Positions 1,104 through 48,803 of a stretch of 64,000 bases of DNA are shown piece by piece. Each line of letters starts with the position of its first letter. Position 1 is the first letter of the stretch. The notes under the pieces were generated by a model. It did no database searches, was not told the origin of the DNA, and saw only the letters and a list, made by a program, of their open reading frames with translations. Both the position numbers and the translations under genes were made by a program. The DNA is from Gammaproteobacteria bacterium (GTDB lineage: Bacteria > Pseudomonadota > Gammaproteobacteria > S012-40), in assembly GCA_029883265.1 (NCBI GenBank), contig JAOUJM010000001.1:10511-74510 (forward strand). Reading direction: 5' to 3'.

Positions 1104-1306
1104 ACAACTTAATCGGTTGCACCCAAATACCAGATCATAAACTCATAGAACCCATCCCATTTTGCAGGGATTTCGCCATTCACAAAACGATCTCTAGTTG
1201 CTAGCTCAAAGTCCCAGACCCTGCCTGTAATCTTGTCATACAAATAGCAACCTTCTCCCTCTGCAGTAGTGAAGCATATATAGTTTTCTGGTACTTTCCA
1301 GATGAC

Positions 1307-1699: not shown

Positions 1700-1707
1700 C
1701 CACTAGT

Positions 1708-4069: not shown

Positions 4070-4070
4070 A

Positions 4071-4361: not shown

Positions 4362-4799
4362 TTATGGCTCCAATAAGTCGTTTGTATCTAATATATATTT
4401 CTGAATTTGACTGCCTTCAACACCTACTCCCATTGAAGATGCACGCCCTTCAAGAATTTTAGTATTAGGCCTAATTTGGAATTGCTTCATGTAGGTCATC
4501 TGATTCCATTCTGGTTTTAATGCTAGATTTTGTCTTGAAGCAGGGAAAGTTTCGAACAGGTAACGACCTTTCTCCCACGCTTTCACATTATCGTAATACC
4601 TGATACCAAATTCGCTATCTGTTGCTTGTCTCAAGTTGAGAGTCTTAATATCAAAACTCTCTAGAACTTGCTTCCTGATATCTCGTGGCACTCCAGCATT
4701 TTGTAAGAACTGCGATGCTTCCTTAACCCCTGCGTATCTTTGACCAAGTACGCCCTCTAATTCAGCCGTAGAGATGTTGTCGGCTTTGTTTGGAACTAC
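4362..4799 (-). CDS. Orphan toxin C-terminal domain E (begins VVPNKADNISTAELEGVLGQRYAGVKE...)
   Basis: Track ORF 4362..4691 extends in frame to GTA GTT CCA AAC AAA at 4799. The first junction codon shares one nucleotide with the TAG stop of immunity F (TAGTAGTTCCA). Confidence 0.55.
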   Translation of the reverse strand, partial: VVPNKADNISTAELEGVLGQRYAGVKEASQFLQNAGVPRDIRKQVLESFDIKTLNLRQATDSEFGIRYYDNVKAWEKGRYLFETFPASRQNLALKPEWNQMTYMKQFQIRPNTKILEGRASSMGVGVEGSQIQKYILDTNDLLEP

Positions 4800-5191
4800 T
4801 AATTAGGTAACTGCTTTACTAATGCATCGAAGTTCTGCTTAAGTTTTATCGCAATTTCACTGAGCTGTTCCTCGTCGCTCATAGGCGTGTCAGGAACTCC
4901 AGCTAGTAACTCCTCTATCGATAACTGCTCCCCGTCAGATATCAATGAGTTCAAATATGACCACTCGGCATTATCTAATTCTTCATTGCTTGCTTCGATA
5001 GTGCCGATCAAACAATTTACTTCCCCATCCCTTTCGGATTGATAAAAACATAACTTACAGAGTGGGGAAGAATAAAAAACTAGGGATTTATTACCACCAT
5101 CCAAATCTAAAGTTTCGTCTAGTTTAAAACCCTTGGCAGAAAAGAAATCTTCCAAGGCCCTACGCACTTTTCTCTGAAAATCGATAGTCAT
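4799..5191 (-). CDS. Putative immunity protein for toxin F
   Basis: 130-aa ORF. Its start overlaps the toxin F stop (5188..5191). Confidence 0.5.
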   Translation of the reverse strand: MTIDFQRKVRRALEDFFSAKGFKLDETLDLDGGNKSLVFYSSPLCKLCFYQSERDGEVNCLIGTIEASNEELDNAEWSYLNSLISDGEQLSIEELLAGVPDTPMSDEEQLSEIAIKLKQNFDALVKQLPN

Positions 5192-5664
5192 TGTTTGTCA
5201 GCCTTGATCCAAGAATTACCATCTCTCACATAACCATAATTCTTGGCGTTGGTTTCAAGATATTTAATCTCCATCGCCGTGAAGCTTTTTGGTCTATTAG
5301 TTAAAACTTCTCTGATTGTTTCGCCATGGAGATCAATTCGACCAACGCCACGCTCTAATTGACCATGAAGGAATTGTTCATTAACAGACCAAGCTTTTGC
5401 TCTACCTTCTGTCTTGCTTAAACCATTGGTGAGTTTTGAGAAAAAGCTGGAGTCCGTCTCAAACCATACTCCACCATTAGCCTTTGCCTCACCGATATAC
5501 CCACCATTGTCAACCCACTTGCCCAAAACTACACGATTTGAATTCTGATTAACATGGGTGGACATTTCTGCTATTTGTCGAGCATACTGATCCGCATTAG
5601 TGCCCGATGTATTGCGTAATCCATTAATCGCATCATTCAGAGAGAGCTTGTTTGGAACAAATAA
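5188..5664 (-). CDS. Orphan toxin C-terminal domain F (begins LFVPNKLSLNDAINGLRNTSGTNADQYARQIAEMSTHVNQNS...)
   Basis: Track ORF 5188..5565 extends in frame to the FVPNK junction (TTTGGAAC at 5651-5658). A stop lies just upstream. Confidence 0.55.
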   Translation of the reverse strand, partial: LFVPNKLSLNDAINGLRNTSGTNADQYARQIAEMSTHVNQNSNRVVLGKWVDNGGYIGEAKANGGVWFETDSSFFSKLTNGLSKTEGRAKAWSVNEQFLHGQLERGVGRIDLHGETIREVLTNRPKSFTAMEIKYLETNAKNYGYVRDGNSWIKADKQ

Positions 5665-5675
5665 TCAGCTAGTAG

Positions 5676-6059
5676 TTAGCTGTAGTACTTATACAAATCA
5701 GAATCTTCCCACTCTTTCTCATAAACCGCAAGAACCCTGCTTAATGCATCTCGAACTCTTAAATCTGAGCTATTCGACATTTCCTGCAGAACTGATAGCT
5801 TAATTTCGTCCCATTTTAGTTCTCTCATGCAAAACTCAAGAATTTCAATAGGCCATTTTTCTTCTTTTACTATCGTTTTAAAATTCTCGACAAGTTCTTC
5901 ACGACTATTAGAATTGGACTGTACAAACTGGAGTATTTGTAACAAATAGGGCTCAAGTTCATCCGTGCCGTCAGTTTTTTGCCATGCAGACTCTGCGGCT
6001 TGTACTAAGGTCCAGAATTCATCTGCAACTTTCATGATCATTAATCCTTCTTTACCCAT
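5676..6059 (-). CDS. Putative immunity protein for toxin G
   Basis: 127-aa ORF. The internal Met at 6041 would give the typical TGATG stop/start overlap with toxin G, so the true start may be 6041. Confidence 0.5.
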   Translation of the reverse strand: MGKEGLMIMKVADEFWTLVQAAESAWQKTDGTDELEPYLLQILQFVQSNSNSREELVENFKTIVKEEKWPIEILEFCMRELKWDEIKLSVLQEMSNSSDLRVRDALSRVLAVYEKEWEDSDLYKYYS

Positions 6060-6846
6060 TCACCGCCACGAGGAAGTGTTGAATCAAACCTCCAGACTTT
6101 CTCTATATATTTGTTCGTGGTATCAAATCCTAGTGCTTGAAACGCTTTCTCAGTTGCCTTTTGTGCAGATTGCCCATGGGGCTGATAATGACCCGAAGTG
6201 TTGTCGATATATTTCAACTCGCCATTTACAGCTTTGACCTCGCCGGCAGCAATTACAGGACGATTGTTGGCAATATCAATATGACCGCCACCAGGCGCTT
6301 TCCTGGATTGTTTACCAAGCAGCAAAGTGCCATCCTCGAGTACTACATAATTGGCTTTTTGGTTAATCTCAGTAAATCTATTCGGATTTATAAGGTTAGC
6401 CGGACCAACGCTATCTTCAGGAAATTTATTCGTGAACACTGAAGTTTTGTTGTCTGGAACAAATCCGTCTACCTTGCGTAGTTTACCCAACATAGAGGAC
6501 CCAGCCAAGGTTAAAGCAAAATCAACTGGAGATTCTGGGATCAACATGTCGAACAATTGCGCACCTACAAACGCTCCAGGACTTAAATTCTTGAATGCAA
6601 AATGCTCCATTGAGTTTTTAACTTGTGATTTACCACTCCTCATATCGCTGGTAAATTTGACAGAATTTTCATAGATATTTCTAAGTATTGGATCTTCTAT
6701 CAAGTCACTGAGCTTATTAATATCTTGAATATCAGTGTCAACTCGCCATATTTTTGCACCGTTTTCATCAGAGCCAATACTATCTGAAACATCAGCTCTA
6801 ACAGGACCATGTTCATTTTTCGCAAGCTGTAATCCGTCCAGTGATA
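6041..6846 (-). CDS. Orphan module G: ~130-aa pre-junction RHS-tail fragment (…VDFALTLAGSSMLGKLRKVDGF) plus VPDNK junction plus CT domain
   Basis: Track ORF 6041..6868. Its first 7 codons (MRSLGRL) are encoded inside the IS66 left end (6847-6868). The internal junction is GTCTGGAAC at 6452-6460. Confidence 0.5.
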
Positions 6847-6930
6847 GTAAGCGTCCCAAACTCCGCACCTTCCCAGTTCGCTTAAGATCCGTTAGCCTGT
6901 TTCTGTGTAAATTACCGGCAGGAGCAAGCC

Positions 6931-7290
6931 ATGAACGATCTCACTCAATCATCCATCAAAAACATTCGCACGGATAAACGCAGCAAGGGCCCTGAGTATT
7001 GGCAGGCGCATATAGAGGCCATGAAACAAAGTGGTCTATCAAAAACCGCGTACTGTAAACAAAACAATCTTTCGACGGTGACATTTTTTAAATGGGAAAA
7101 GAAACTCGCCAAGGCCTCGGCTTTGTTTGTACCTGCGAAGTTGGAGATGCCGGTGTCTCCAACCTCATCCAACGAGATGATTCGGATTGATCTACCCAAT
7201 GGCTGTGTGATTTCCTTGCCGGTATCGTGCTCACCCGCAGAGGGTTTACGTTGGATTGAGACCTTGATGCGTGTTTCATGCTCAAGCTAG
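6931..7290 (+). CDS. tnpA: IS66-family TnpA (orf1, HTH)
   Basis: 119 aa. It is the first of three overlapping same-strand ORFs after a GTAAGCG-type IR. Its paralogue at 18817 is about 85% identical. Confidence 0.7.
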   Translation: MNDLTQSSIKNIRTDKRSKGPEYWQAHIEAMKQSGLSKTAYCKQNNLSTVTFFKWEKKLAKASALFVPAKLEMPVSPTSSNEMIRIDLPNGCVISLPVSCSPAEGLRWIETLMRVSCSS

Positions 7291-7634
7291 ATCAAGAGAT
7301 TCAGATTTACTTCGCGATTAACCCGATCAACATGCTGAAAAGCTTTGACGGTTTAGCAGCCTTGGTGGTGGATGTGATTCAACAAAATCCCCTATCAGGG
7401 CATTTGTTTGTGTTTCGTAATCGAGCCGCTGATAAAATTAAACTACTGATCTGGGATCGCAATGGCTTTACCATCTACTATAAAAGACTCGAACGCGGTC
7501 GCTTTAAGTTTCCTGAGTTGGATGACTGCACTCATCTTTCGATCACTCGTCAAGAACTGGATTTATTGTTTGATGGTATTGACTTCACTCAACTCAAACG
7601 CCTACCCACACTTCACTATAAATCAGTGATTTGA
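7278..7634 (+). CDS. tnpB: IS66-family TnpB (orf2)
   Basis: 118 aa with the motifs IYFAINPINMLKSFDGL…LFVFRNRAADKIKLLIWDRNGF…YKRLE characteristic of IS66 Orf2. It overlaps the tnpA end. Confidence 0.8.
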   Translation: MLKLDQEIQIYFAINPINMLKSFDGLAALVVDVIQQNPLSGHLFVFRNRAADKIKLLIWDRNGFTIYYKRLERGRFKFPELDDCTHLSITRQELDLLFDGIDFTQLKRLPTLHYKSVI

Positions 7635-7646
7635 TCCGTCTGATAC

Positions 7647-9185
7647 TTGCATTACAATAGTGCCATGCAAGGACGCACGAAAACACATTATTCCTACTCT
7701 GAACTCAAAGCTTTAGTCGATGAACTTCAAAAAGAAGTGCAGCTGCTTCGAGAGAAAAATCGTTTGTTACTGCATCGTCAGTTTGCCGCGAAGTCCGAAC
7801 AGACTACCGATGATCAGTTGTCCTTGTTTGATGCGGATACTTCATCGTCCGAAGTAAATCAAAACAATGAAAAAAACAACAACATCGTCGTACTGGCACA
7901 TCATCGCAAGAAACGACAACGACTGACGTTTTCTGATGACCTACCCAAACGTAGAGTTGAGATTGATCTGGATGAACACGATAAGACCTGCGATTGTTGC
8001 GAAGCACCACTGACGCATATTGGTGAAGACATCACTCGAAAGATTGAATTTATCCCAGCGAAAGTCCAAGTCGTCGAATACGCTCGATTAAAATATGCGT
8101 GTAAATCCTGTGAAGACACCATTAAACGCCCACCCTTACCGAACTTTATCTTACCAAAAAGTTTCGCCACACCAAGTTTACTCGCGCATTTGATTGTGAG
8201 TAAGTTTGGTGATGGCTTACCTTTGTATCGCATTCAACAACAACTGGCCCGTCAAGGTGTGCATTTACCGCGTTCCACCATGAGTACACTGTTACTCAAA
8301 GCCGCTGATTTACTCGATCCGGTTTATAAATTAATGATCAAGCAAGTATTGTCCGGCCCGCGTATTTGGACAGATGACACGATTCTTCCCAAACAAAACG
8401 ATGATCCGAGTCGAAACAAAATCATTCAATCCAGATTATGGGTGTATATTGGTGGACCTCTTAAAGATCCACCCTTGGTCATTTTCGATTACACCAGCAC
8501 TCGATCCTCGAAATGGCCGAAGGACTTATTGTCTGATTACCAAGGCTACAAACATGCCGATGGTTATGGCGGCTATAAATCGTTGCATGATACAGGTAAA
8601 ATTCACTATGTGGCGTGCTGGAGTCATGCGCGGCGAAAGTTTTTTGAGGCCTCATTACTCACCGAGCAAACCGGTAAAGCCAAGACCATGATTAAATACA
8701 TCAAACTGCTTTATAAGATTGAAACCGCTTGTGAAAAATATGGTAATAAAAAACGTAAACGGTTTCGACGAAGATATGCCACACCCATACTCAACACCAT
8801 CAAAGCCTATGCCGATCAACATGCGCCGCATATTCCACCCAAAACCAGTTTGGGTAAAGCGTTTACTTATTTGCTTAATCAATGGCATGGACTGGTTCGT
8901 TATCTCGATGCCGGTCACCTAACCATTGACAATAACCTGGCCGAACGACACATCCGACCCATTGCCGTGGTTCGAAAAAGTTTTCTGTTTGTCGGCTCGG
9001 ATCGCGGTGGTCGTGCGGCTGCGATTTATTATTCGGTGTTGGGGTCGTGTAAAAGTTTGAGGGTGAATCCTTATAAGTATTTGATGGATTTGTTTGAGCG
9101 GTTGCCAAATTTTGAATCAAAATTGGAGTTAAGCAATTTGATGCTAACTCGCTGGACTAAACAAGATGACGAACGAAAAATCTGA
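7647..9185 (+). CDS. tnpC: IS66-family transposase TnpC (orf3)
   Basis: 512 aa. It has an N-terminal leucine-zipper-like coiled coil, a CxxC…CxxC zinc-finger region (KTCDCC…CKSCED) and a DDE-type core. It is about 88% identical to the 19554..21044 copy. Confidence 0.85.
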   Translation: MHYNSAMQGRTKTHYSYSELKALVDELQKEVQLLREKNRLLLHRQFAAKSEQTTDDQLSLFDADTSSSEVNQNNEKNNNIVVLAHHRKKRQRLTFSDDLPKRRVEIDLDEHDKTCDCCEAPLTHIGEDITRKIEFIPAKVQVVEYARLKYACKSCEDTIKRPPLPNFILPKSFATPSLLAHLIVSKFGDGLPLYRIQQQLARQGVHLPRSTMSTLLLKAADLLDPVYKLMIKQVLSGPRIWTDDTILPKQNDDPSRNKIIQSRLWVYIGGPLKDPPLVIFDYTSTRSSKWPKDLLSDYQGYKHADGYGGYKSLHDTGKIHYVACWSHARRKFFEASLLTEQTGKAKTMIKYIKLLYKIETACEKYGNKKRKRFRRRYATPILNTIKAYADQHAPHIPPKTSLGKAFTYLLNQWHGLVRYLDAGHLTIDNNLAERHIRPIAVVRKSFLFVGSDRGGRAAAIYYSVLGSCKSLRVNPYKYLMDLFERLPNFESKLELSNLMLTRWTKQDDERKI

Positions 9186-9193
9186 ACCGGCTT

Positions 9194-9748
9194 TCAATTA
9201 CTAAGTCGAAGCACTTTACCCGAGGATACTTTGAAATGACTAGTAACGATTTTTTGTTCGCCGTTTATGATATAAATATAGTTTGCAATGATAGTTTTAT
9301 TTTCTATTTTTATGTCCCTAAGATTGCTAACTATGGCGTCACCATCTAGCAACCTAAAGCTGCTATCACGAAATTGAAAAATTAGTAAATTATAAAGATT
9401 TCCGCCACTATTGTAATACACGAGCAATTCTGGAGTTGGTTCTTCATCCATGTTCTCTTGTGCAAAATCAACGGAATGACCCTCTAGCATATAAATTATC
9501 TTAGGATAGCCATTTTCAATTGTTAACAAATAAGTTTCGTTTGTGGGTAGGCAATCATCAGCATCATCAATGTAGAATATTTTTAAATCACGGATTTCCA
9601 TGCTCTTCTTTGAATGAATATGAAACTCCATTTTGTTTGAGCCAGACTCAAATTTGTTGCACTTTTCCACAGATGAAAAACAATTAGTAATTCCGGCAAT
9701 ACTTATTAAAATCACGTATAAAGCATGTCTTATATGAGCCATTTTCAC
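9194..9748 (-). CDS. Putative immunity protein for toxin H, with N-terminal signal peptide (periplasmic)
   Basis: 184 aa. Hydrophobic leader MKMAHIRHALYVILISIAGITNCFSS. Its start overlaps the toxin H stop (9745..9748). Its stop lies 8 bp from the tnpC stop, in convergent orientation. Confidence 0.55.
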   Translation of the reverse strand: MKMAHIRHALYVILISIAGITNCFSSVEKCNKFESGSNKMEFHIHSKKSMEIRDLKIFYIDDADDCLPTNETYLLTIENGYPKIIYMLEGHSVDFAQENMDEEPTPELLVYYNSGGNLYNLLIFQFRDSSFRLLDGDAIVSNLRDIKIENKTIIANYIYIINGEQKIVTSHFKVSSGKVLRLSN

Positions 9749-10509
9749 GGTTTACCTTGTGTCTTAAGATAGTTTTCAATAAATTGCACGGTGGTTCCAT
9801 GCCCCTTAGTCGTATTGTAATAGACTTTCCAGTCCTGCGCATAAGAGTGAGCACCAGGTGATTCAATGAAAGATAGTTGACTTCTATATCTCCAATATTG
9901 TAAACCAGCCATCGCTGCAGCATATTTATCATTATTTCGGAGTTCAGAATGCAAATCACCACCATTTGTGAAGCTCATTACTAACTTTGCTATTTTGGGT
10001 TTATATGCAAGGACATTTGCCCATATATCATCATGCGTATTCGGTTCCATTTGAAACAAACCTTTTGCAGGGCCATTACTAAATTGATCCCTGTATTTAA
10101 GCGAACTTTCTTGCGCAGCAGTACCAACTAGAACTTCTTGGAATTCGGTTCGGTATTTTGAAAAAGTTTTGTCTATTTTCCCGAGCTCATCAATGGCAGG
10201 TTTAATCGAGTTAGTAAGCAAAGCATCTGCTTTCTTCTTGAAATGAAGATTATTATTAAACGTATATTTCTCAAGTTCATCCAAGTCAATTTTATACCCT
10301 GATGAATCGAACAAGGACCCCTCCCCAAACGTTCCATCTTGAGGCGCTAAGCTAAGAAGATACTTCGCTACTTCAGTATTGTCACCCCAATCAACGTCGG
10401 GCAACTCGTTTTTATCAAGAACCGCGTTTTGGCCCACACTGGCCAGCATGTTTGAACCAACTGGGTTATTTTTCCTAGGGGCAGAGTTTTGGACGCTTAC
10501 TGGAACTAC
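9745..10509 (-). CDS. Toxin H: lytic transglycosylase (SLT/lysozyme-like) C-terminal domain entered through the IS66 IRR (…LFVVP-VSVQNSAP-RKNNPVGSNMLASVGQ…)
   Basis: Track ORF 9745..10449 extends in frame through 10478-10500, which is translated as VSVQNSAP, to GTA GTT CCA at 10509-10501. The motif LVGTAAQESSLKYRDQFSNGPAKGLFQMEP matches the SLT catalytic signature (E-S … GLMQ-like). Confidence 0.6.
   Translation of the reverse strand, partial: VVPVSVQNSAPRKNNPVGSNMLASVGQNAVLDKNELPDVDWGDNTEVAKYLLSLAPQDGTFGEGSLFDSSGYKIDLDELEKYTFNNNLHFKKKADALLTNSIKPAIDELGKIDKTFSKYRTEFQEVLVGTAAQESSLKYRDQFSNGPAKGLFQMEPNTHDDIWANVLAYKPKIAKLVMSFTNGGDLHSELRNNDKYAAAMAGLQYWRYRSQLSFIESPGAHSYAQDWKVYYNTTKGHGTTVQFIENYLKTQGKP
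10478..10500 (+). repeat. IS66-type right inverted-repeat-like sequence (GGGGCAGAGTTTTGGACGCTTAC), copy 1
   Basis: 20/23 complementary to the IRL at 6847. Identical to 22817-22839. Confidence 0.6.
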
Positions 10510-11168
10510 AAATAGTTAGATTTTTCCAATTCCCACCATTCCAAAAATAAACTCCAGTCATACCAGCTAACAACGGTACCATCGTAAGGCTCGCTTATCC
10601 TAGTACTACAAAATTGCTTACCAGCCAAAGAACTTATTTTTTCTAATGCTAAATCTCTAAGCTCGTAAAAATAATCGCTGTTCATCCCTTTCTCTGCAGC
10701 ATAATCATCTTGCCTAAAATGTATCAAAGGAGATATTTCTCCTTTTTTTGCATAAGTATAATAATGATACAAAGCTATCCTTCTATACCCCAAATCATCT
10801 GAAATAAGATAATCCGCCATTATTTCTCTATAATTAGGATAGTTATCCTTTAACCAAACAAATAACTCTAAAGCTTGATAACAAACATATTTACTTTCAT
10901 GCTTTAAAAGTTTTTCCAATCTACCCACTAAATATTTAAAAAAATCAGTACCGAATGTACCAGGCTTATTCTTTTCTAGAAGCGCGTTTAGAAAAAGAAA
11001 CCCTGTTGATATATCAGCTTGGTCATCAGACGATAAACAATTATGTACCCCCTGTATTACGACTGAGTTTATACCCAGCTTTTGAATATCCGAATGGGTA
11101 AGAGTACTAGTATCCACACCAGTAGCATCTGATAGCAATTTTCTCAGTTCCTCTGATGGGTTCATCAT
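10506..11168 (-). CDS. Putative immunity protein for toxin I
   Basis: 220-aa ORF. Its start overlaps the toxin I stop (11165..11168). Confidence 0.5.
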   Translation of the reverse strand: MMNPSEELRKLLSDATGVDTSTLTHSDIQKLGINSVVIQGVHNCLSSDDQADISTGFLFLNALLEKNKPGTFGTDFFKYLVGRLEKLLKHESKYVCYQALELFVWLKDNYPNYREIMADYLISDDLGYRRIALYHYYTYAKKGEISPLIHFRQDDYAAEKGMNSDYFYELRDLALEKISSLAGKQFCSTRISEPYDGTVVSWYDWSLFLEWWELEKSNYL

Positions 11169-11596
11169 GGTCTAGTTATCCATTTAAGCTCATTGACAAA
11201 TAATGATTCAGTATCAATTTGTTTCACAAAATCAGAATGAAGTTCTTTCGGAATATATGTTTGAGTACCTGATCCACCTTTCACTCCTCCCTGCCAAGCT
11301 TGAAGCCCAGGCTTGATCTCAAACACTCCAAGTTGCTCGGCATTATTTCCCCATGCTTTGATATTAAACAACTCTTCTGCATCCATTGAGTTCAATGGCT
11401 TCATATTACTAAAGAATTCTCCAGTACCGCGTTGACCTTGTCTCTGAGCTTGGAAATACAGACCTGGCTTAACTTCCCCAAACCCTTTAGTTGAAAAAGA
11501 ATCAAGCTTAGATGCACTTATATTTCCAGGTGCAATCAGGCTCGGTGATGGACCTGACTCAGGTATTACAACTGAAGATTTATTGTTTGGAACTAC
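11165..11596 (-). CDS. Orphan toxin C-terminal domain I (begins VVPNNKSSVVIPESGPSPSLIAPGNISASKLDSFSTKGFGEV...)
   Basis: Track ORF 11165..11404 extends in frame to GTA GTT CCA AAC at 11596. Confidence 0.55.
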   Translation of the reverse strand, partial: VVPNNKSSVVIPESGPSPSLIAPGNISASKLDSFSTKGFGEVKPGLYFQAQRQGQRGTGEFFSNMKPLNSMDAEELFNIKAWGNNAEQLGVFEIKPGLQAWQGGVKGGSGTQTYIPKELHSDFVKQIDTESLFVNELKWITRP

Positions 11597-12021
11597 CTTT
11601 TTATAGCAGTTCCTTTAACAATTATATCCTCACCTACTTTCTCAATTGAATCTATAGAGTTAATTACATAGTTTGCAACGTCATTATCTTCATCTAAAGC
11701 AATATCAAGAATATCGAACTTATGGTAAGCATAAAGATATTCAAATAAAGATGCGCCTTCGATATCTATGAATTCAGATAATAACGGATAATCAGTAGCC
11801 CCCGGATATGGGGGCTCAAAATCACCAGCAATCTCGTCATCTTCTCTAAGTTCTTCAACACCATCATTGTACAAAGGTGTGAGCTTTTCTATAAAAACTC
11901 CTTTAGCAAATTTAATTTCGTAGCGGAAAGTCTCAAAGCCATCCCCTTTTCCGAAGCTAAATTGGCTAAACGTTAACGCATTGGAATCAATGTTCTTACC
12001 ATCTACACTATATAAAATCAT
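11593..12021 (-). CDS. Putative immunity protein for toxin J
   Basis: 142-aa ORF immediately 3' of toxin J. Confidence 0.5.
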   Translation of the reverse strand: MILYSVDGKNIDSNALTFSQFSFGKGDGFETFRYEIKFAKGVFIEKLTPLYNDGVEELREDDEIAGDFEPPYPGATDYPLLSEFIDIEGASLFEYLYAYHKFDILDIALDEDNDVANYVINSIDSIEKVGEDIIVKGTAIKR

Positions 12022-12023
12022 CT

Positions 12024-12539
12024 TTAACTTCCCGGAGGTAGAATAATAATTTTGCCATCAGGCGTTATCGTAATTGATCCAGATGGAATATATGGTTGAC
12101 CAGCTTTCAAGTCTCCACCAGCTCTAGTCCCAGATCTTTGGAAAAATTGCTCTGGCGTTGTCATTGTTTCTATAGTTTTTGTACTTTTACCAGGAACAAT
12201 AGTAAGTTCTTCCATTTTTAAGAAATTTGGATTATCAGCTGCGGCTTTATTGACGTTTTTAATTATTCTTTGAGCTTGCTTTTCAGATAAGCTACCGAAA
12301 CCGACATCAATATCACTACCTTTGCCGAAATCGCCTCTTATTCGGCTACCACCAAATACTACTGTTGAATTTCTTTTTAGCCCCTGCTCTAAAATTAACG
12401 TAGCTTGCTCAGTTGTCAAATCAGGTACATGCTTTGATAAAAATGCAGACTGTTCTGCAATGCCTGATGTGGTTAATGTAGTTTGCTCAGGATATGCATT
12501 AAATACAGATTTATCTGTCCAGCGTGTGTTTGGAACTAC
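12024..12539 (-). CDS. Orphan toxin J with nucleotidyltransferase-fold motif (begins VVPNTRWTDKSVFNAYPEQ...)
   Basis: Track ORF 12024..12419 extends to the junction at 12539. VVFGGSRIRGDFGKGSDIDVGF fits the G-S…D-x-D signature of pol-beta-superfamily nucleotidyltransferases. Confidence 0.5.
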   Translation of the reverse strand, partial: VVPNTRWTDKSVFNAYPEQTTLTTSGIAEQSAFLSKHVPDLTTEQATLILEQGLKRNSTVVFGGSRIRGDFGKGSDIDVGFGSLSEKQAQRIIKNVNKAAADNPNFLKMEELTIVPGKSTKTIETMTTPEQFFQRSGTRAGGDLKAGQPYIPSGSITITPDGKIIILPPGS

Positions 12540-12985
12540 TTATCTGTATAATACCATTCTAGAAAATCGAAAAAACTTTTGTATATCGGTTGCAACATCC
12601 TCTTGGAGAGTTTTTCCTCTTCTCCCCAGCTCACATCAAATACTTCATCGCTAACTTTGCTATAAAAATAGCTCCCCTCACCTTCAATAGACGAAATACG
12701 TAAATAATCTTCCATTCCTGGCAGTGAGCTATATTCACCTGATTCAGCATCTTCAATAATTTTTTCCAAAGTGCTAATTTCGCTACCGTTACCCACTACT
12801 GGGATAGCCACCAAAGTATAAAAATCAATAAAGGCAGAGTCAGCATTTCTTATTCCCAACTCTTTCTCAAAATAATTCTTGTCATCTTGCGTAACTATAA
12901 ATTTTCCATCTTGTGCAGAAAAAACGCCGTCATAACACCACTTCAGGTTAGACTTATAGAAGTTTGAGACAATGTCCGGTAACAA
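12536..12985 (-). CDS. Putative immunity protein for toxin K
   Basis: 149-aa ORF. Its TAG stop overlaps the first junction codon of toxin J (GTAG). Confidence 0.5.
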   Translation of the reverse strand: MLPDIVSNFYKSNLKWCYDGVFSAQDGKFIVTQDDKNYFEKELGIRNADSAFIDFYTLVAIPVVGNGSEISTLEKIIEDAESGEYSSLPGMEDYLRISSIEGEGSYFYSKVSDEVFDVSWGEEEKLSKRMLQPIYKSFFDFLEWYYTDK

Positions 12986-12986
12986 T

Positions 12987-13544
12987 TTAACGACCTCCGC
13001 TATTCGTTATCTCGATTAGTCGCTGTTGCCAATAGATTTTTCTGTCAATATCAAAAGCTGATCTATCAACAGGATATGTTGGATGTTGACTTTGAGTTGG
13101 CCCAGATCCCGCGCCATTCATTTCACGCCCTCTATTGGTTTTGTATGGGTGCAATGCCTCACCTCCTTGGCCTGTTTTTGACCGATGCGTTAAATCACTT
13201 AGTTCAAACAGAGGACCGTTCGCATTTTGGCGACTAAGATGCAATTCAATGCGAGACTGTACACCATTCTTCAGAACATAAGGAGCATTTCCCACTTCCA
13301 ATAGCTCCCTATTTGTAGTTGTATAGGTCCTTTTGGTTTTTGGATTGGTAATTTTTACCACTAAATCGGGATCAATTTCTTGTTGAAAGACTTTGTATTT
13401 AATCCCTGTCCCATTTACTGGGGCTACCCACACAGCTTCGGTTTTAAAATAACTAGGATTCTTGGCGTTTTTCGCCCGTAGCGCAACAAAGTCTATCTTA
13501 TTCGGTTCTACTGCTCCCTCAAGTTCATATTTGTTTGGAACTAC
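12987..13544 (-). CDS. Orphan toxin C-terminal domain K (begins VVPNKYELEGAVEPNKIDFVALRAKNAKNPSYFKTEAVWVAPVNG...)
   Basis: Track ORF 12987..13433 extends in frame to the junction at 13544. Confidence 0.55.
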   Translation of the reverse strand, partial: VVPNKYELEGAVEPNKIDFVALRAKNAKNPSYFKTEAVWVAPVNGTGIKYKVFQQEIDPDLVVKITNPKTKRTYTTTNRELLEVGNAPYVLKNGVQSRIELHLSRQNANGPLFELSDLTHRSKTGQGGEALHPYKTNRGREMNGAGSGPTQSQHPTYPVDRSAFDIDRKIYWQQRLIEITNSGGR

Positions 13545-14254
13545 TTATTAAAAAGCGCCTTCCTCAAGACTTTCTGAGCTTCTGCCTCTTCACCTGTAGA
13601 CTCTTTAAAGCATTCATCCTGTACATCAAGTTTAAGTACGCTTCCTAAATCAGAGACACATTCCATAGCAAAATTATCTGCCCCTATATCCCTCAAAAGA
13701 TCCTTACTCATCCACATAGTAGAACCAACACATTCAATATACCCATTCTTCAGATCCCATCGCCCTGGGTTCCTAGAAATATCAATCACTTCACTTTCAA
13801 GAGGAAATGGCAAACCATTGCTCTTCTTCGGTAGATTCGAATGATCTCGTCCTTCGGACTCATAGTAAGCAATATCTTCCATGTTTTGCCAACGGTCATA
13901 TTCTCCATCATATAACCTAGCCTGAACAAAAAACGGGTCATTTACTATTTGAGTAACCCATTTTTCTGCATACTCTTTAGACGCAGCTAGATTCTTTATA
14001 TCTAACCTGGAGAAATCCAGATCTGCTATATATGAAAACTCAATACTCCCCCCATCAAGCTCAATAAAGAAGCTATCGGCCTTATTCTTAAGAAGAGTTT
14101 CCGAAACATCAGTAAAACCTAGTTCTTTGCCAGTGAATCCATCCGCCACTTTTTTATCGGCATATATTTGTTTAAATTCTTCGGTAAGCTTATTCCATAA
14201 CTTATAAGCTTCAGCGTAAGCTTTACCTCTAAGAACAATTTCAATTTGTACCAT
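13541..14254 (-). CDS. Putative immunity protein for toxin L
   Basis: 237-aa ORF. Its start lies 6 nt after the toxin L stop. Confidence 0.5.
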   Translation of the reverse strand: MVQIEIVLRGKAYAEAYKLWNKLTEEFKQIYADKKVADGFTGKELGFTDVSETLLKNKADSFFIELDGGSIEFSYIADLDFSRLDIKNLAASKEYAEKWVTQIVNDPFFVQARLYDGEYDRWQNMEDIAYYESEGRDHSNLPKKSNGLPFPLESEVIDISRNPGRWDLKNGYIECVGSTMWMSKDLLRDIGADNFAMECVSDLGSVLKLDVQDECFKESTGEEAEAQKVLRKALFNK

Positions 14255-14259
14255 GATAA

Positions 14260-14676
14260 TTATTCACCAAACTCTTTAATAATTACTGGAATATTTCGCT
14301 GCTTGCCATACTCAATTAAATGCTTCGCATCATTAAAACCACCTGGCTGAACCCTAATATCCAATATTTTCGTTGCCGGAACGTCGGAAACGGTAATGGT
14401 AGTCTTTTGCAAGTGGTCGATATGAGATCTCATATCATACTCCCAAGATTTACCACCAGTATTAACCGTTTTCAGACTAACAACATTGTTTCCTTGTTGG
14501 AAATCAATCGAAGGGAAGTTATTAGACTTAAATGGTTCGCCAGTTTTTGGGTTAATAGAGTTATCGGAACGAGCCCAATCTTTATAATCTGTTTCTGTAA
14601 GGTGTGACTCAATCTGTCTACCACGAACCTTCGGATCTAGATCCCAAACTTCTCTGCCTAACTTGTTTGGAACAAC
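14260..14676 (-). CDS. Orphan toxin C-terminal domain L (startless, 138 aa; VVPNKLGREVWDLDPKVRGRQIESHLTETDYKDW…MRSHIDHLQK…EFGE)
   Basis: Not in the ORF track because it lacks Met. Hand translation is open from GTT GTT CCA AAC AAG at 14676-14662 to TAA at 14262..14260. The TAA stop of the upstream ORF (14679..14677) is directly adjacent. Confidence 0.55.
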   Translation of the reverse strand, partial: VVPNKLGREVWDLDPKVRGRQIESHLTETDYKDWARSDNSINPKTGEPFKSNNFPSIDFQQGNNVVSLKTVNTGGKSWEYDMRSHIDHLQKTTITVSDVPATKILDIRVQPGGFNDAKHLIEYGKQRNIPVIIKEFGE

Positions 14677-15075
14677 TTATCGCACAGTTACACTCCAAGA
14701 AAAGTCTGGATATCCATCATTTTCTGTGACTCCTAAGACCAGCTTTTTGGCACCTATCACGCACCTAATTTCGCCTAACTCTTCACTTATCTCATTAGGA
14801 TGTAGCAGATCAACGAACTGCCTATAAAATGGCTCGGTATTTTTCGACTTCAAAATTAGAGTTAGCGCGTCTTTTAAACCAGGACTATTACTCTCCACAA
14901 CAGCATTTGGAGTATCAACAGACAGCATAACTGGATTCATGCTTGAAGACAGAACACGTCCTATAAACAACTCACACAAAGATAACGCGCTTTCTGACGC
15001 CTCATTCAATTTGGGCGGAAGAATTATATCGACGGTTTTTTTGTTTTCACCAGTATTCATAGCACCTTCTTCCAA
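14677..15075 (-). CDS. Second small ORF of module M (accessory or immunity protein)
   Basis: 132 aa. It overlaps the 3' end of the zinc-ribbon ORF and ends immediately before the module L junction. Confidence 0.4.
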   Translation of the reverse strand: MEEGAMNTGENKKTVDIILPPKLNEASESALSLCELFIGRVLSSSMNPVMLSVDTPNAVVESNSPGLKDALTLILKSKNTEPFYRQFVDLLHPNEISEELGEIRCVIGAKKLVLGVTENDGYPDFSWSVTVR

Positions 15076-15293
15076 CCCCCTCGAAAAGCTTGGTCAGGAA
15101 ACTCTAATACCCATAATTGTCCACAGTGTTTGCACTTGTATTGAATTTTTATAAATGGCCCTGAATGATCTATTTGTCCGTAACTTTTCAACTCGCCCAT
15201 TTCAACCATCTGGGCAATCCGCTGCCGAAATTCAACGAATTCCTTCTCAGAATTAAACCGTTCTTGGCACAACTCGCAGACTACACAACTCAT
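15057..15293 (-). CDS. Putative immunity protein for toxin M (CxxC…CxxC zinc ribbon)
   Basis: 78 aa with CVVCELC … CKHCGQ. Its start overlaps the toxin M stop. Confidence 0.45.
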   Translation of the reverse strand: MSCVVCELCQERFNSEKEFVEFRQRIAQMVEMGELKSYGQIDHSGPFIKIQYKCKHCGQLWVLEFPDQAFRGGWKKVL

Positions 15294-15793
15294 GGCTTCA
15301 ACCTAAAGATGTGGGTATCCTCTATGGGTACTGGATCAAGCAAGAATTGAGTCCATCCTCCCTGTCCAGCTTCTGGATAGGAATTTGTATAAACCTCCCA
15401 CCCTCGTGTTCCTTCATTTCCAAATGGCCTTGCGACACTAAATCCGCGGACCTTATCTACGGGGATCGCGACACCATAAGTTGGTTCTCCCCACTCAGGC
15501 TTGATTTGAGCACCGCGAGCAATAGCACCACTGGAGTGCGAAAATTCTGTTGTTGAGTAGCCACGAACACTTCCATAACGCAGAGACTTATCAAGACCGT
15601 CTTCAGATAGATATCTAAAAATAAAATCCTGACTTTCTATAGACTCGGAGAGACGGCGTTCGTAGTTCAACTGCGAAAGCTTGTCAATCCTACCTGCACG
15701 CTCTTGCGGGCTTAGGTGACCATACTTTTCTTTCAGTGCTAATGAGCTTGCTCTCGCATCCAGAACAACCTGCGGTGCATTGTCTGGAACAAA
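15290..15793 (-). CDS. Orphan toxin C-terminal domain M (begins FVPDNAPQVVLDARASSLALKEKYGHLSPQE...)
   Basis: Track ORF 15290..15670 extends in frame to TTT GTT CCA GAC at 15793. It is in frame with, and directly after, the TGA stop of immunity N. Confidence 0.55.
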   Translation of the reverse strand, partial: FVPDNAPQVVLDARASSLALKEKYGHLSPQERAGRIDKLSQLNYERRLSESIESQDFIFRYLSEDGLDKSLRYGSVRGYSTTEFSHSSGAIARGAQIKPEWGEPTYGVAIPVDKVRGFSVARPFGNEGTRGWEVYTNSYPEAGQGGWTQFLLDPVPIEDTHIFRLKP

Positions 15794-16264
15794 TCACAAC
15801 AAGCCAAATTTTTCACCCTTACCAATTACTTCAATCGTAACTGAGTAGTCGGACTTTTTTATAGAAACATGTTCTATCAAACCATCAGTTAAATTCTCTA
15901 CACAAAAATCAATTTTTTCCGATTCACTTTTTGGCAAGAAAACCTTATCAGAATACTTTGCCAAATAAGGTAACTTTTTAACTATTGGAATCCTCAATAA
16001 CGGTGTGAGTTCTCTAAATACATCCAGGAATTTGTCGCTATCCAGAGAAGGAGATAAAATTTTCAAAGCTCTTTGAAAACTTCCGATATTTTCGTTTGCC
16101 ACAAAATCATCAAAACTTTTACCGGAAACTATAGCAACCTTTCTAGTGGGTAGGCTTTTACCTTGCCAAATAGTAAGAAACGCTTTAGAAAACTCAATCG
16201 TTCTTAATTTCTCTGGCTCTTCTTTTAAAAAATCTTTTGCCAAATTAATGCTCATATGCGTCAC
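15794..16264 (-). CDS. Putative immunity protein for toxin N
   Basis: 156-aa ORF 3' of toxin N. Confidence 0.5.
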   Translation of the reverse strand: MTHMSINLAKDFLKEEPEKLRTIEFSKAFLTIWQGKSLPTRKVAIVSGKSFDDFVANENIGSFQRALKILSPSLDSDKFLDVFRELTPLLRIPIVKKLPYLAKYSDKVFLPKSESEKIDFCVENLTDGLIEHVSIKKSDYSVTIEVIGKGEKFGLL

Positions 16265-16267
16265 CTT

Positions 16268-16792
16268 CTATTTAAAACCATAGATGGTTTTTATTCTATC
16301 CCATGCATCAAACCGTGTAGCCAGACTACCATTTTCTCCTAATAAAACCCTATTTTCATATATGGTTCCTAGTTCTGGTTTTCCTATGCTGTCTGCAAAC
16401 TTTTGTTCAGCTAGGAATGCTCTCGCCTCAAGATAAGACTTATTAGACATATTTTTCACACCGGAAATATCATCGAAAAAGTGTTGCCCTTCATGTGCAG
16501 TAATTGTAGCAGCTCGTTTTAACCCAGTATTTCCGGTATAAATTAGATCTTGGTTTAACTCAATTTGATTTGTACCAGGAAAATACCGACCATTAAGCCC
16601 ATCTAATTTCGAATAAACAATCTCAACTTTTCCATTTTGAATAGCAGTTGCCAATTTAACTGATCTAGCATCCCCAGTTTCCAATATACGGCTAATCATT
16701 TGAGGAGAAGGCGCTTGATTTCCGTTCGCTAACCTAACTCCATCACCCCCAAACATTACTTTACTTTCTAACTGAAGGTTGTCTGGAACAAC
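16268..16792 (-). CDS. Orphan toxin N with HExxH zinc-metallopeptidase motif (begins VVPDNLQLESKVMFGGDGV...)
   Basis: Track ORF 16268..16756 extends to the junction at 16792. It contains TITAHEGQHFFDD (HExxH). Confidence 0.5.
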   Translation of the reverse strand, partial: VVPDNLQLESKVMFGGDGVRLANGNQAPSPQMISRILETGDARSVKLATAIQNGKVEIVYSKLDGLNGRYFPGTNQIELNQDLIYTGNTGLKRAATITAHEGQHFFDDISGVKNMSNKSYLEARAFLAEQKFADSIGKPELGTIYENRVLLGENGSLATRFDAWDRIKTIYGFK

Positions 16793-16814
16793 CTAATCCC
16801 AAACATCAGTCAAG

Positions 16815-17096
16815 CTAACAAACAGACTCTAGATCCTTGATTAAAACCATAACCTGATCCTGATTACATTCAACAAAGAAACTGTCGATAGTAGAAGTTG
16901 TTTGCAAAGTAATAGATTGCTTAGCTTTAAGCTTTTCTGCTAGTTCTTTTGTTACATCTTCACGATTAGAATTAGTTATATGTACCGAACACACATCCTT
17001 ACCATAAACAACCATAGCTTCGTAGGAATCTTTTAAAGACCACCATTCTCGACGATCTAAAACTCCAGCTGCCTGTTCTCTTATTAAATTAGCCAT
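16815..17096 (-). CDS. Putative immunity protein for toxin O
   Basis: 93-aa ORF. Its start overlaps the toxin O stop (17096). Confidence 0.5.
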   Translation of the reverse strand: MANLIREQAAGVLDRREWWSLKDSYEAMVVYGKDVCSVHITNSNREDVTKELAEKLKAKQSITLQTTSTIDSFFVECNQDQVMVLIKDLESVC

Positions 17097-17563
17097 CAGT
17101 CTACCCTAATATTATCTGTAGAGTTGAATATGCTGCGCTGCCCAGCACTATTCAAGATCAAACTTTGACTTTGTTGCTGCCTAAATATATCCAATACCAT
17201 ACGATCCCCGGGCCAGCCTGATGCATCTAGTTTAATGTCTGTCGTTCCGGGATGAGTATGACCAGACCACTTATAGCCTTTATCAGCCAAACCTTGTAAT
17301 TCAGATTTGGTTAATGGAACACCTCCAGCATTCCCTCTAAACACTAGGCGTTGACTACCATTAGTAAACAAAGCAAACTCATCACCTGTCTTTGCCGTAA
17401 GCGCTGCCAGATCAGTCACGCTTATTTGCTTCTTATGAAGAGTTGTACTTGATAATGTATCTGGTAATTGACCCAAAACCCGTTGTTGACGCTTTGACAA
17501 ATCGCCAAAGCCCCAAGCTATTTCGCTAGGAGAACTAGCTGAAATCGTCTTGTTTGGAACTAC
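17096..17563 (-). CDS. Orphan toxin C-terminal domain O (begins VVPNKTISASSPSEIAWGFGDLSKRQQRVLGQLPDT...)
   Basis: Track ORF 17096..17500 extends in frame to the junction at 17563. The TAG stop of immunity P overlaps the junction (GTAG). Confidence 0.55.
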   Translation of the reverse strand, partial: VVPNKTISASSPSEIAWGFGDLSKRQQRVLGQLPDTLSSTTLHKKQISVTDLAALTAKTGDEFALFTNGSQRLVFRGNAGGVPLTKSELQGLADKGYKWSGHTHPGTTDIKLDASGWPGDRMVLDIFRQQQSQSLILNSAGQRSIFNSTDNIRVD

Positions 17564-17853
17564 ATACTAAATCCGCTTTTCCAATCACTTTTAGTAGTAG
17601 GATCCGACCTCATTTCTTCTAAGAAGAACTCACACGCTGAGCTTTCATCCTCAAAACACTCTTTGCCAGTCTGCAATCCTCTCTCACTATAATAAACACA
17701 CCACCGGCCATTTTCACAACGCAAGCACAACGCCTCGTCCTTTTGTTCCTCCTCCAATGAGTAAGAGCTAGGATTAAATTTCTCCTCACTCAACTTTCTT
17801 TGAAGATCATCTTTATTCATGCAATATCCCTCATCATTTTGTAACGCGCTCAA
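17560..17853 (-). CDS. Putative immunity protein for toxin P
   Basis: 97-aa Cys-rich ORF that overlaps the toxin P 3' end. Confidence 0.45.
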   Translation of the reverse strand: MSALQNDEGYCMNKDDLQRKLSEEKFNPSSYSLEEEQKDEALCLRCENGRWCVYYSERGLQTGKECFEDESSACEFFLEEMRSDPTTKSDWKSGFSM

Positions 17854-18732
17854 GATATTGGTTTGCTGGATTCAAGAGCTCCTTTACTGATTTTGGCAAC
17901 TCGTATTGGGTACCATATCCAGGCATATCAAAAGCAGGTGCAGCTGGGCCAATGCGTGTATCCGGAATTTCTTGGAGAACGCGATACACATTCAAGTTAC
18001 TCACATCTGTGCCGGGACGAAGGGATAATGTTTCTGGAGTTGTTCCTAAGGGGCTTGCGAATGTACCGCGTTCATTCCCGAGACGGCCTATTAGCTGTCC
18101 AGGTTGCAATGAGCCAATCTCATCAGCACCATAAACAAAACCTTTATTCTTCGGCCAATCCCAGAACACATTTTCTGCACCATACTTGCTGGTCAAATAT
18201 TCATTCCATTGAGCGCCTGAAACTGCTCCAGTCTTGTTTGGAACACGATCACCGCCTTTATATTTTAATATACCGCCAGCAATAAAACCATATGTTAAAC
18301 CACCCAATAGCTCTGGATTCTCCCTGTTCTGCCACAAGTTCCTCAGACTTTGGACCTTTCTATCTGAAAATTCGGTACTAGTAGGAAAACCCAGCTTATC
18401 TAACTTAAAGAAACTATTAAAATTTAAAGAGAGGTCATTAAACTCTTCCCAGATATTTTTTCCTATATCTAGCAAAACCTCTAAAGTCTCATTTGTCAAT
18501 CTGTCACCAAGATCTTTATGAGCATTTAGGGTTCCTTTACTGAATCTCAATGCGTAATCACCCACATCTCCGTTTTGTTTCTGCTGGTTACTCCGGCCCA
18601 AAACAACCCCATTAATCTGATCAAGTTGCTGCATTGCCTCTTCTAAATTTTGTTGACTCTCAGAAACCTCTCCAACCCCCTCCTCCTTACTATGTCCCGC
18701 CAACGTCAATGGTAAATCCACTTCCTGGCCAT
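17834..18732 (-). CDS. Module P: displaced original C-terminus of the giant rhs gene (EVDLPLTLAGHSKEEG…KYKGGDR-VPNKT-GAVSGAQWNEY…LERVTK)
   Basis: Track ORF 17834..18817. The first 28 codons are IS66-encoded (18817-18733). Immediately outside the IS left end the frame continues from the TSD (HGQ) into rhs-like sequence. That sequence joins seamlessly to …TYNGYGQ of the giant ORF once the IS66 element and one TSD copy are removed. Confidence 0.65.
18725..18732 (+). repeat. 8-bp target-site duplication CTGGCCAT (left copy) of IS66 element 2
   Basis: Identical octamer at 22840-22847, directly outside the other end. IS66-family elements make 8-bp TSDs. Confidence 0.85.
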
Positions 18733-18755
18733 GTAAGCGTCCTAAACTCCGCACC
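18733..18755 (+). repeat. IS66 left terminal inverted repeat (copy 2)
   Basis: GTAAGCGTCCTAAACTCCGCACC. The canonical IS66-family end starts GTAAGCG. Confidence 0.75.
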
Positions 18756-18816
18756 TTCCCAGTCAGTTTAAGATCCGTTAGCCTGCTGCTGTGTAAATTA
18801 CCAACAGGAGCAGGCA

Positions 18817-19173
18817 ATGAACGATCTCACTCAACCGTCCATCAAAAACATTCGCACGGATAAACGCAGCAAAGGCCCTGAGTATTGGCAGGCGCATATG
18901 GATGCGTTAAAGCAAAGTGGTATGACTAAAACCGGTTATTGCATGCATCACGGACTTTCTACGGCGACGTTTTTTAAGTGGGAGAAGAAACTGGCCAAGG
19001 CCTCGGCTTTGTTTGTTCCGGCTAAGTTGGAGACAGTGCCGGTGTATCCAGCCTCATCCAATGATCTGATTCGCATTGATCTGCCCAATGGTTGTGTGAT
19101 TTCCTTGCCAGTGTCGTGTTCACCTACTGAGGGTTTACGTTGGATCGAGACCTTGATGCGTGCTTCATGCTGA
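18817..19173 (+). CDS. tnpA: IS66-family TnpA (orf1)
   Basis: 118 aa. Paralogue of 6931..7290. Confidence 0.7.
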   Translation: MNDLTQPSIKNIRTDKRSKGPEYWQAHMDALKQSGMTKTGYCMHHGLSTATFFKWEKKLAKASALFVPAKLETVPVYPASSNDLIRIDLPNGCVISLPVSCSPTEGLRWIETLMRASC

Positions 19174-19523
19174 AGCTAGATCGTGAGATTCAGATTTACT
19201 TTGCGATTAATCCGATCAATATGTTAAAAAGCTTTGATGGGTTATCCGCTTTAGTGGTGGATGTGATCGAACAAAACCCCCTATCGGGGCATTTGTTTGT
19301 GTTTCGTAATCGAGCCACTGATAAGATTAAATTGCTGATCTGGGATCGCAATGGTTTTACCATTTATTACAAAAGACTCGAACGTGGTCGCTTTAAGTTT
19401 CCTGAGCTAGATGACTGCACCCACTTGTCTATCACCCGCCAAGAGTTGGATTTGTTATTTGACGGGATTGATTTTACTAAGCTCAAACGATTACCCGCAC
19501 TGCATTACACATCCGTGACTTGA
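19140..19523 (+). CDS. tnpB: IS66-family TnpB (orf2); true start probably the internal MLKLDREIQIY at ~19167
   Basis: Same motifs as 7278..7634. Confidence 0.8.
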   Translation: MDRDLDACFMLKLDREIQIYFAINPINMLKSFDGLSALVVDVIEQNPLSGHLFVFRNRATDKIKLLIWDRNGFTIYYKRLERGRFKFPELDDCTHLSITRQELDLLFDGIDFTKLKRLPALHYTSVT

Positions 19524-19553
19524 TTCTGGATTAACCTGCATTACAATAGCGCC

Positions 19554-48189: not shown

Positions 48190-48205
48190 GCAGGTTCCTG
48201 TTGGC

Positions 48206-48763: not shown

Positions 48764-48803
48764 TATTACTTCTCCTCAATTATTTTCAATTCATTCAAAC
48801 CTG

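Follow-up and report, generated by a model that had tools for sequence, protein, structure and literature searches.

A candidate MNT-type nucleotidyltransferase toxin module in an orphan cassette array of a gammaproteobacterium

The toxins known so far from Rhs proteins and from type VI secretion (T6SS) are nucleases, deaminases, ADP-ribosyltransferases, NADases, (p)ppApp synthetases and Fic AMPylators; the minimal nucleotidyltransferases (NTases) of the MNT/MntA type adenylylate a tyrosine of HepT. The polymorphic-toxin census of 2012, which covers more than 150 toxin domains, names RelA/SpoT-like enzymes as its only NTases (Zhang et al. 2012, PMC3482391), and these are likewise the sole NTases in a T6SS effector review of 2025 (PMC11925235). 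In the literature open to full-text search, subscription-only papers excluded, we found no description of a pol-beta/MNT-type polymorphic, Rhs or T6SS toxin. The Rhs-type system of toxin, immunity and orphan genes is known, as is the MNT-like NTase fold; their combination, the target and the immunity family are uncharacterised. Here we describe such a combination in cassette J, which lies in a stretch of 64,000 nucleotides (the window) from contig JAOUJM010000001.1 of the Gammaproteobacteria bacterium assembly GCA_029883265.1. We put at about 0.72 the probability that cassette J is an intact, silent orphan module of a polymorphic-toxin system, composed of an MNT-type NTase toxin domain, predicted to be competent, and an immunity gene. 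Its parts, as read from the sequence, are these (window coordinates):

12024..12539, minus strand: orphan toxin frame with the MNT-like pol-beta nucleotidyltransferase domain, 171 codons plus TAA
12297..12353, minus strand: NTase signature GGSRIRGDFGKGSDIDVGF, residues 63-81, with the G-S turn, R66/R68 and the predicted catalytic D76 and D78
12210..12212, minus strand: E110, candidate third catalytic carboxylate (hEh), from alignment conservation
12078..12155, minus strand: family-specific C-terminal motif PE(E/Q)FFxRxGxR...PSG, residues 129-154, from the alignment
11593..12021, minus strand: presumed cognate immunity gene, 142 aa, its ATG 2 nt past the toxin stop, from conserved downstream pairing

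With the MNT/MntA enzymes (8xeh_E, 1no5 HI0073 and 7bxo/6m6u) the window toxin has in common the signature hFGSRxRGD-x(4-9)-SD[IL]Dh, the same small single-domain size class and, likely, the chemistry: transfer of a nucleoside monophosphate (NMP) from a nucleoside triphosphate (NTP) with two to three carboxylates and Mg2+. The role, however, is reversed, the window family standing in the position of a secreted toxin and not in that of an intracellular antitoxin, and the window pair lacks a HEPN partner. Two additions set the family apart further: a conserved N-terminal helical hairpin, EQxxFLxxxhPGLxxxQA, and a C-terminal extension of about 45 residues, PEEFFxRxGxR...PSG, which is absent from MNT. 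The Rhs and other polymorphic toxins (PMC3482391) are alike in the C-terminal placement of the domain on carriers, in the immunity gene immediately downstream and in the start-less orphan tandem arrays with LHH, TNT, Ntox15 and Ntox46 modules; unlike other Rhs orphans, those of the window lineage are cut exactly at a junction of 12-14 nt (VVPN) and carry no stretch of Rhs core.

Two more groups invite comparison. MenT/AbiEii, type IV toxin-antitoxin (TA) enzymes that modify tRNA 3' ends, share the NTase fold as a growth-arresting toxin and are a possible functional analogue, whereas MenT is about 2x larger, intracellular, TA-encoded and not secreted, and is neutralised by antitoxins of different mechanisms (PMC11375011). 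Tas1, a RelA/SpoT-like T6SS toxin that synthesises (p)ppApp (PMC11925235), and CccR, a Fic-domain T6SS effector that AMPylates its target (PMC9755527), are interbacterial effectors that act by nucleotide chemistry after delivery to the cytoplasm; the window toxin differs from both in fold or clade.

Signature, fold and conservation of the toxin domain

The protein read from 12539..12024 on the minus strand is VVPNTRWTDKSVFNAYPEQTTLTTSGIAEQSAFLSKHVPDLTTEQATLILEQGLKRNSTVVFGGSRIRGDFGKGSDIDVGFGSLSEKQAQRIIKNVNKAAADNPNFLKMEELTIVPGKSTKTIETMTTPEQFFQRSGTRAGGDLKAGQPYIPSGSITITPDGKIIILPPGS. The frame has neither ATG nor GTG, and its first codon lies immediately 3' of a stop codon; the sole start-like codon is a TTG at 12419, the use of which would remove the first 40 residues. 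Compared with its relatives the frame is full length, reaches the C-terminal PPG and keeps every invariant residue, and copies in Vibrio, Zooshikella and Thiodiazotropha are 87-94% identical to it. Promoter and terminator scans of 11400..13700 gave no excess over chance. With neither start codon nor carrier, the window copy is probably untranslated and thus probably an intact but silent reserve.

The initial annotation had read a pol-beta-like NTase signature in this frame, quoting the motif G-S-x(9-13)-D-x-D, and had looked to profile searches for the verdict. Both the motif and the assignment hold. Pfam NTP_transf_2 (PF01909) matches residues 54-111 at 23.6 bits (E 6.7e-5), above its gathering score of 21, and also matches 9 of 18 relatives (E<=0.01); the motif is present as G63-G64-S65 ... 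D76-x-D78, and F62-G63-G64-S65 ... D76-I-D78-V corresponds to the hG[GS] turn followed, 9-13 residues on, by [DE]h[DE]h. The bare pattern is not distinctive: when the window is translated in all six frames it turns up eight times, seven of them in unrelated frames. The longer signature GS-[RKFY]-x-[RK]-G ... SD-[IVL]-D-h, typical of minimal nucleotidyltransferases, is found within the window in cassette J only. A Pfam scan of the toxin at E<=1 returned NTP_transf_2, Polbeta and a spurious MscS match, and nothing for Fic, DUF4433, RelA_SpoT or AbiEii, so that the link to Fic/DUF4433 toxins which the initial annotation had put forward is not supported. The NCBIfam equivalog model for MntA (NF047752) matches faintly (15.9 bits against a cut-off of 60, E 0.009).

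A model of the toxin domain, built with AlphaFold2 without templates from an alignment of 18 sequences (A1), has a mean predicted local distance difference test score (pLDDT) of 90.9 and a predicted template modelling score of 0.87. The alpha-beta-alpha-beta-alpha-beta core fold of NTases is present in it, E110 is next to a short beta bridge (residue 109), and in structural alignment the toxin core covers 94 of 104 MNT residues. MNT-type proteins are listed among the Foldseek matches of the model, which include 7bxo and 6m6u (MntA-HepT). In a profile search of PDB sequences the signature alone (22 residues) aligns to MNT-type minimal nucleotidyltransferase structures, of the pattern GSRARGD..SDIDh, at E of about 0.1-0.25: VvfGGSRiRgdf..gSDiDvgF is matched with GSRARGDYLDTSDIDILF in 2rff and with GSRAKGTYHQGSDIDM in the MNT entry 8xeo_A, and 8xeh also aligns. 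On the strength of the model fold, the structural matches and the shared signature, the toxin core is predicted to be an MNT-like pol-beta NTase, flanked by about 25 N-terminal and about 45 C-terminal residues that are specific to the family. Membership of the RelA/SpoT family was considered and rejected, with no Pfam match and no RSH protein among the structural matches; the same goes for MenT/AbiEii, with no Pfam match to AbiEii/DUF1814 and with MenT absent from the best structural matches.

Close relatives, 21 in number and none longer than 268 aa, came from a word-indexed search; they include those of Vibrio vulnificus (91% identity) and Zooshikella harenae and a JGI entry (100% identity). 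A profile search with HMMER over 1.84 billion cluster representatives extended the family to 168 proteins at E<=1e-3, 88 of them at E<=1e-30, the 168 standing for clusters at 50% identity. The statement in the initial annotation that such toxins are uncommon is fair as far as the searchable literature goes, although among sequences the family is not tiny. Its members appear in databases as "nucleotidyltransferase domain-containing protein" or "hypothetical"; no dedicated Pfam model exists for it, and many members score under the threshold of the generic model.

Residue conservation was counted over 116 representatives with a near-complete domain. G64, S65 and D76 are found in 100% of these and D78 in 98%, R66 in 97% and R68 in 93%; position 110 is E in 87% and D in 4% (91% acidic), and E110 is invariant in alignment A1. 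Because it is near-invariant in the 116 representatives, the predicted catalytic set appears to be under purifying selection. The C-terminal block is conserved to a similar degree, with F132 and G137 at 100%, G154 at 99%, F133 at 98%, and R135, R139 and S153 at 97%; we presume that PE(E/Q)FFxRxGxR...PSG is an acceptor- or substrate-binding part.

Some members depart from this pattern. The homologue of Moraxella lacunata CCUG 4441 (L037, 6001..6508) is frameshifted within the domain and is a decayed copy. Two versions (P0112 and P0119) begin with a hydrophobic segment that resembles a signal, contain numerous cysteines and end in a cysteine-rich C-terminal extension and, unlike the Rhs-borne forms, may belong to a differently exported lineage. 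Among representatives with residues beyond the domain, one (P0056) is a read-through fusion of toxin and immunity protein and the others carry no Pfam domains there.

Carriers and the immunity partner

The toxin role is assigned because Rhs, PT-HINT and LysM carriers bear the domain at their extreme C-terminus, which is the position of a toxin. The domain ends at most 15 residues from the C-terminus in 135 of 151 representatives, in proteins of up to 2105 aa whose other Pfam domains are RHS_repeat, DUF6531, RHS core, Phage_base_V (VgrG-type), PT-HINT, LysM and Annexin. Full-length Rhs proteins that end in the NTase domain are found in Pseudomonas chlororaphis PCL1601 (1608 aa) and Pseudomonas sp. 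PDM15 (1753 aa), and Brevibacillus formosus, which is Gram-positive, has an RHS-repeat protein that also terminates in it. The closest full-length carrier, from a metagenome-assembled genome of Candidatus Thiodiazotropha (L008, 3469..6513; 1015 aa), has annexin and not RHS repeats; its domain is 90% identical to that of the window and is joined through GIGPSERW, compared with VVPNTRW here.

The genomic settings are of the same kind. In V. vulnificus the copy (91% identical) lies downstream of ClpV-Hcp-VgrG-PAAR-(302 aa)-Rhs(1448 aa)-immunity, as an out-of-frame orphan joined to a fragment of Rhs core, and is followed by Ntox15/Tdi1 and Endonuclease_NS_2 orphans. At a metagenomic locus (L007), Ntox46 and Tsi6 are directly upstream of the NTase. 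Start-less orphan modules occur in the window array, in V. vulnificus (L001-L003), in L007 and in Zooshikella (L009). The claim of the initial annotation that the frame is an orphan toxin in an Rhs cassette array is borne out by the 6384-aa RHS-repeat neighbour, by the LHH and TNT orphans and by the homologues that end Rhs proteins.

A different arrangement is seen on one metagenome contig (L006, 6001..6991), on which an NTase of 157 aa with its own ATG and a partner of 162 aa stand between aspS and argH, with neither carrier nor array; this pair resembles a free-standing toxin-antitoxin pair.

The open reading frame (ORF) of 142 aa behind the window toxin encodes a strongly acidic protein, with an isoelectric point (pI) of 4.1 and a net charge of about -18 (homologues, pI 4.1-4.9), and it has no match in Pfam, HEPN included, or in NCBIfam. 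PPYP and YLYAYHKFDIL are the invariant motifs of its family. In 28 of 33 genome loci the ORF that comes directly after the NTase is matched by a hidden Markov model of this family; the paired loci belong to Gammaproteobacteria, Desulfobacterales, Myxococcota, Bacteriovoracaceae, Planctomycetes, Acidobacteriota, Bacteroidota, Verrucomicrobia, Firmicutes and Actinobacteria. The relation reaches, distantly, as far as the ORF behind a Pseudomonas-like copy whose toxin is 53% identical; hhalign gives the match between the two ORFs a probability of 90%. The NTase and its acidic partner are paired across phyla and would therefore be a toxin with its cognate immunity protein, an immunity function that is presumed for the 142-aa protein itself. 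Between the window (11593..12539) and V. vulnificus (L001, 9980..10941) the toxin proteins are 91% identical and the immunity proteins only 65%, and for this reason the immunity gene appears to diverge much faster than the toxin within a shared cassette. The model of the immunity protein is of moderate quality (pLDDT 66.6), and a fold search with it gave no usable match.

The cassette array and its surroundings

From about 900 to 18826 the window holds a run of about 20 start-less modules. This array, cassette J included, lies downstream of a giant RHS-repeat gene, and the features around cassette J are as follows:

12528..12539, minus strand: cassette junction GTAGTTCCAAAC (V-V-P-N), overlapping the stop codon (TAG, 12536..12538) of the immunity gene before it
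12987..13544: LHH nuclease orphan, a module of the array, from Pfam
17834..18826, minus strand: TNT NADase orphan, from Pfam
21095..21823, minus strand: ankyrin-repeat gene downstream of the RHS gene, likely its immunity gene
21847..41001, minus strand: RHS-repeat protein of 6384 aa
6847..9106 and 18733..20995: two IS66-family elements, each encoding a transposase on the plus strand (512 and 496 aa)

The sequence GTTCCARAC recurs 16 times in the window (1097..18244, all on the minus strand), with 0.82 copies expected by chance, and opens nearly every orphan module, for example at 12528..12536, 11585..11593 and 13533..13541. Most copies stand 0-2 codons past a stop, often that of the preceding immunity gene; the extended junction, TAR-GTWGTTCCARACAA, encodes (V/F)VP(N/D)K. 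The same junction is found in Zooshikella harenae as TGA-GTTGTTCCAAACAAA, with three copies in 8 kb (L009: 770, 1646 and 2591). Similar peptides occur elsewhere: GKGVVPDSK ahead of the toxin of the V. vulnificus Rhs protein itself (at the protein level), and APKLVPNK 55 residues ahead of the NTase GGS motif in a fragment of a LysM carrier that is homologous to the C-terminal part of the giant protein of the window. Across the family the VVPN-like junction is rare (2 of 89 proteins), the others being joined otherwise, for example about 35 residues past the Rhs DPxGL site. Cassettes may be exchanged by recombination at this motif, or it may be no more than a junction peptide that has been conserved. 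From about codon 20 of the toxin to the immunity stop, the DNA of the cassette and that of the V. vulnificus copy agree at about 87% of positions, and the cassette thus appears to move between distant Gammaproteobacteria.

The 6384-aa protein comprises DUF6531, a weak CBM60-like match, a pair of LysM domains, a membrane-like segment rich in glycine and, at the C-terminus, a hydrolase-like domain with GHSLGG, of the lipase/thioesterase kind. The two IS66-family elements are 86.8% identical over 2.27 kb, and each lies just upstream, in the sense of the minus strand, of a longer frame (6041..6940, and the TNT frame at 17834..18826) that includes a pre-toxin region and has a VP(N/D)K junction in its interior; two of the GTTCCARAC copies are inside these frames, which start in the ends of the two elements. 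The elements seem to have decapitated two carrier genes, and the pre-toxin regions of both partial carrier frames show no homology to the main RHS protein.

Further along, between the RHS gene and a flagellar cluster, a protein of 424 aa (44815..46089, minus strand) has a match to DUF6973 (E 4.6e-21) and a second one, barely over the gathering score, to Pfam's eukaryotic "wnt family" model (22.8 bits, gathering score 20.3). The flagellar cluster (47101..64000, minus strand; FliP, FliN-like and FlgE/F/G-type rod and hook proteins) also holds a sigma factor of the sigma-70 family, with regions 2 and 4, as well as TPR proteins, and is unrelated to the toxin array.

Predicted activity, alternative readings and meaning

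The module as we read it would work in four steps. Recombination would join the toxin domain to a carrier, at the VVPN junction here and behind the Rhs DPxGL core elsewhere; the carrier-borne domain would then be delivered into the cytoplasm of a neighbouring bacterium, the compartment that we infer because an NTP-using enzyme needs it. There the toxin would use NTP and Mg2+ to move NMP onto a hydroxyl of an essential macromolecule, with growth arrest as the outcome, and in the producer the 142-aa acidic protein would bind and block the toxin. As to the target chemistry, we tentatively favour AMPylation of a protein, by analogy with the closest relative, since MntA adenylylates the HepT tyrosine.

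Several observations weigh against an orphan NTase toxin module, or against parts of this scheme. The single-sequence profile support exceeds the Pfam threshold by a mere 2.6 bits, the Foldseek matches to MNT-type proteins have weak E-values (at least 0.04), and neither single-sequence nor profile searches of PDB sequences returned anything significant. The closest characterised relatives, MNT/MntA, are antitoxins and not toxins. Toxin pI values across the family (median 8.3, 30% below 6) do not tell a protein acceptor from an RNA acceptor. No copy of GTTCCARAC occurs in the main RHS gene, and no PAAR, VgrG or other T6SS gene is found anywhere in the window; for these two reasons any delivery route of the window copy is only putative.

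A close alternative, somewhat less likely, keeps the architecture and changes the substrate: the enzyme would be an RNA nucleotidyltransferase that extends the 3' ends of tRNA or other RNA, blocking aminoacylation and translation in the manner of MenT, CCA-adding enzymes and poly(A) polymerases (PAP). GLD-2, mtPAP and TUTases are among the Foldseek matches, one family member weakly matches the MTPAP-like palm model of Pfam, and MenT is a precedent for NTase toxins of such action (PMC11375011). The strong acidity of the immunity protein, common among inhibitors of nucleic-acid-binding toxins, is also consistent with this, as is the possibility that the family-specific R135 and R139 bind a phosphate backbone. 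The best matches in sequence and fold, however, are to MNT-type enzymes, the known substrate of which is a protein tyrosine; the domain, at about 140 aa, is without the RNA-binding body and tail domains of the CCA-adding and PAP enzymes; and the toxin pI is not uniformly basic.

It is unlikely that the NTase acts instead on a small molecule, making a toxic or signalling nucleotide, cyclising or consuming NTP, or nucleotidylating a metabolite, and so disturbing the nucleotide pool or second messengers. A T6SS precedent exists in Tas1, the RelA/SpoT-like nucleotide-pool toxin (PMC11925235), and the cyclic-dinucleotide synthase CdnE and aminoglycoside NTases are among the Foldseek matches; yet these score under MNT and are much larger proteins with extra activator or substrate domains, Pfam gives no RelA_SpoT match, and no cyclase- or CD-NTase-specific feature was seen in the toxin.

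Very improbable, too, is a reversal of roles, in which the NTase would be an MNT-like antitoxin or immunity protein and the 142-aa protein the toxic partner, or in which a type VII-like TA module was caught in the array. The closest solved relatives are the MNT antitoxins of HEPN-MNT systems, NCBIfam MntA matches faintly, at E 0.009, and the pair stands alone at the metagenomic locus between aspS and argH. Against this, the MntA score of 15.9 lies far below the cut-off of 60, and in dozens of Rhs, PT-HINT and LysM carrier proteins the NTase forms the very C-terminal end. In the array it follows the same junction as the known toxins LHH and TNT; the partner has no HEPN match in Pfam and no structural match, and its small size, acidity and downstream location are those of an immunity protein. 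That the motif matches by chance, or that the frame is no more than a decayed and functionless pseudogene remnant, is hardly credible: chance occurrences of the bare GS-x(9-13)-DxD pattern (8x in the window), the missing start codon and the frameshifted Moraxella homologue speak for it, and against it stand a frame of full length with all invariant residues kept, the 87-94% identity to the Vibrio, Zooshikella and Thiodiazotropha copies, an intact immunity gene downstream and the concordance of the Pfam, fold and family evidence.

With cassette J read as an orphan MNT-type toxin module, the wider picture can be drawn in tentative terms. The MNT-type NTase, an antitoxin fold in bacteria, may have been turned into a secreted interbacterial weapon that AMPylates or otherwise NMPylates an essential protein of the recipient, or caps RNA; this would be a new activity for polymorphic toxins, and the weapon, paired with an immunity family that is also new, would range from Proteobacteria to Firmicutes and Actinobacteria. 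If true, direct nucleotidylation by pol-beta/MNT-type NTases would join the known activities of Rhs and T6SS effectors. New enzyme activities, and targets whose modification stops bacterial growth, are often found by way of polymorphic toxins, and this family is readily testable: the domain is small, its predicted catalytic residues are clear, an immunity protein is at hand, and culturable hosts carry it, with full-length copies in Pseudomonas chlororaphis and orphan copies in Vibrio vulnificus. The target of the toxin could expose a new vulnerable step in bacterial physiology, and the family could show a route from an antitoxin-type enzyme to a toxin.
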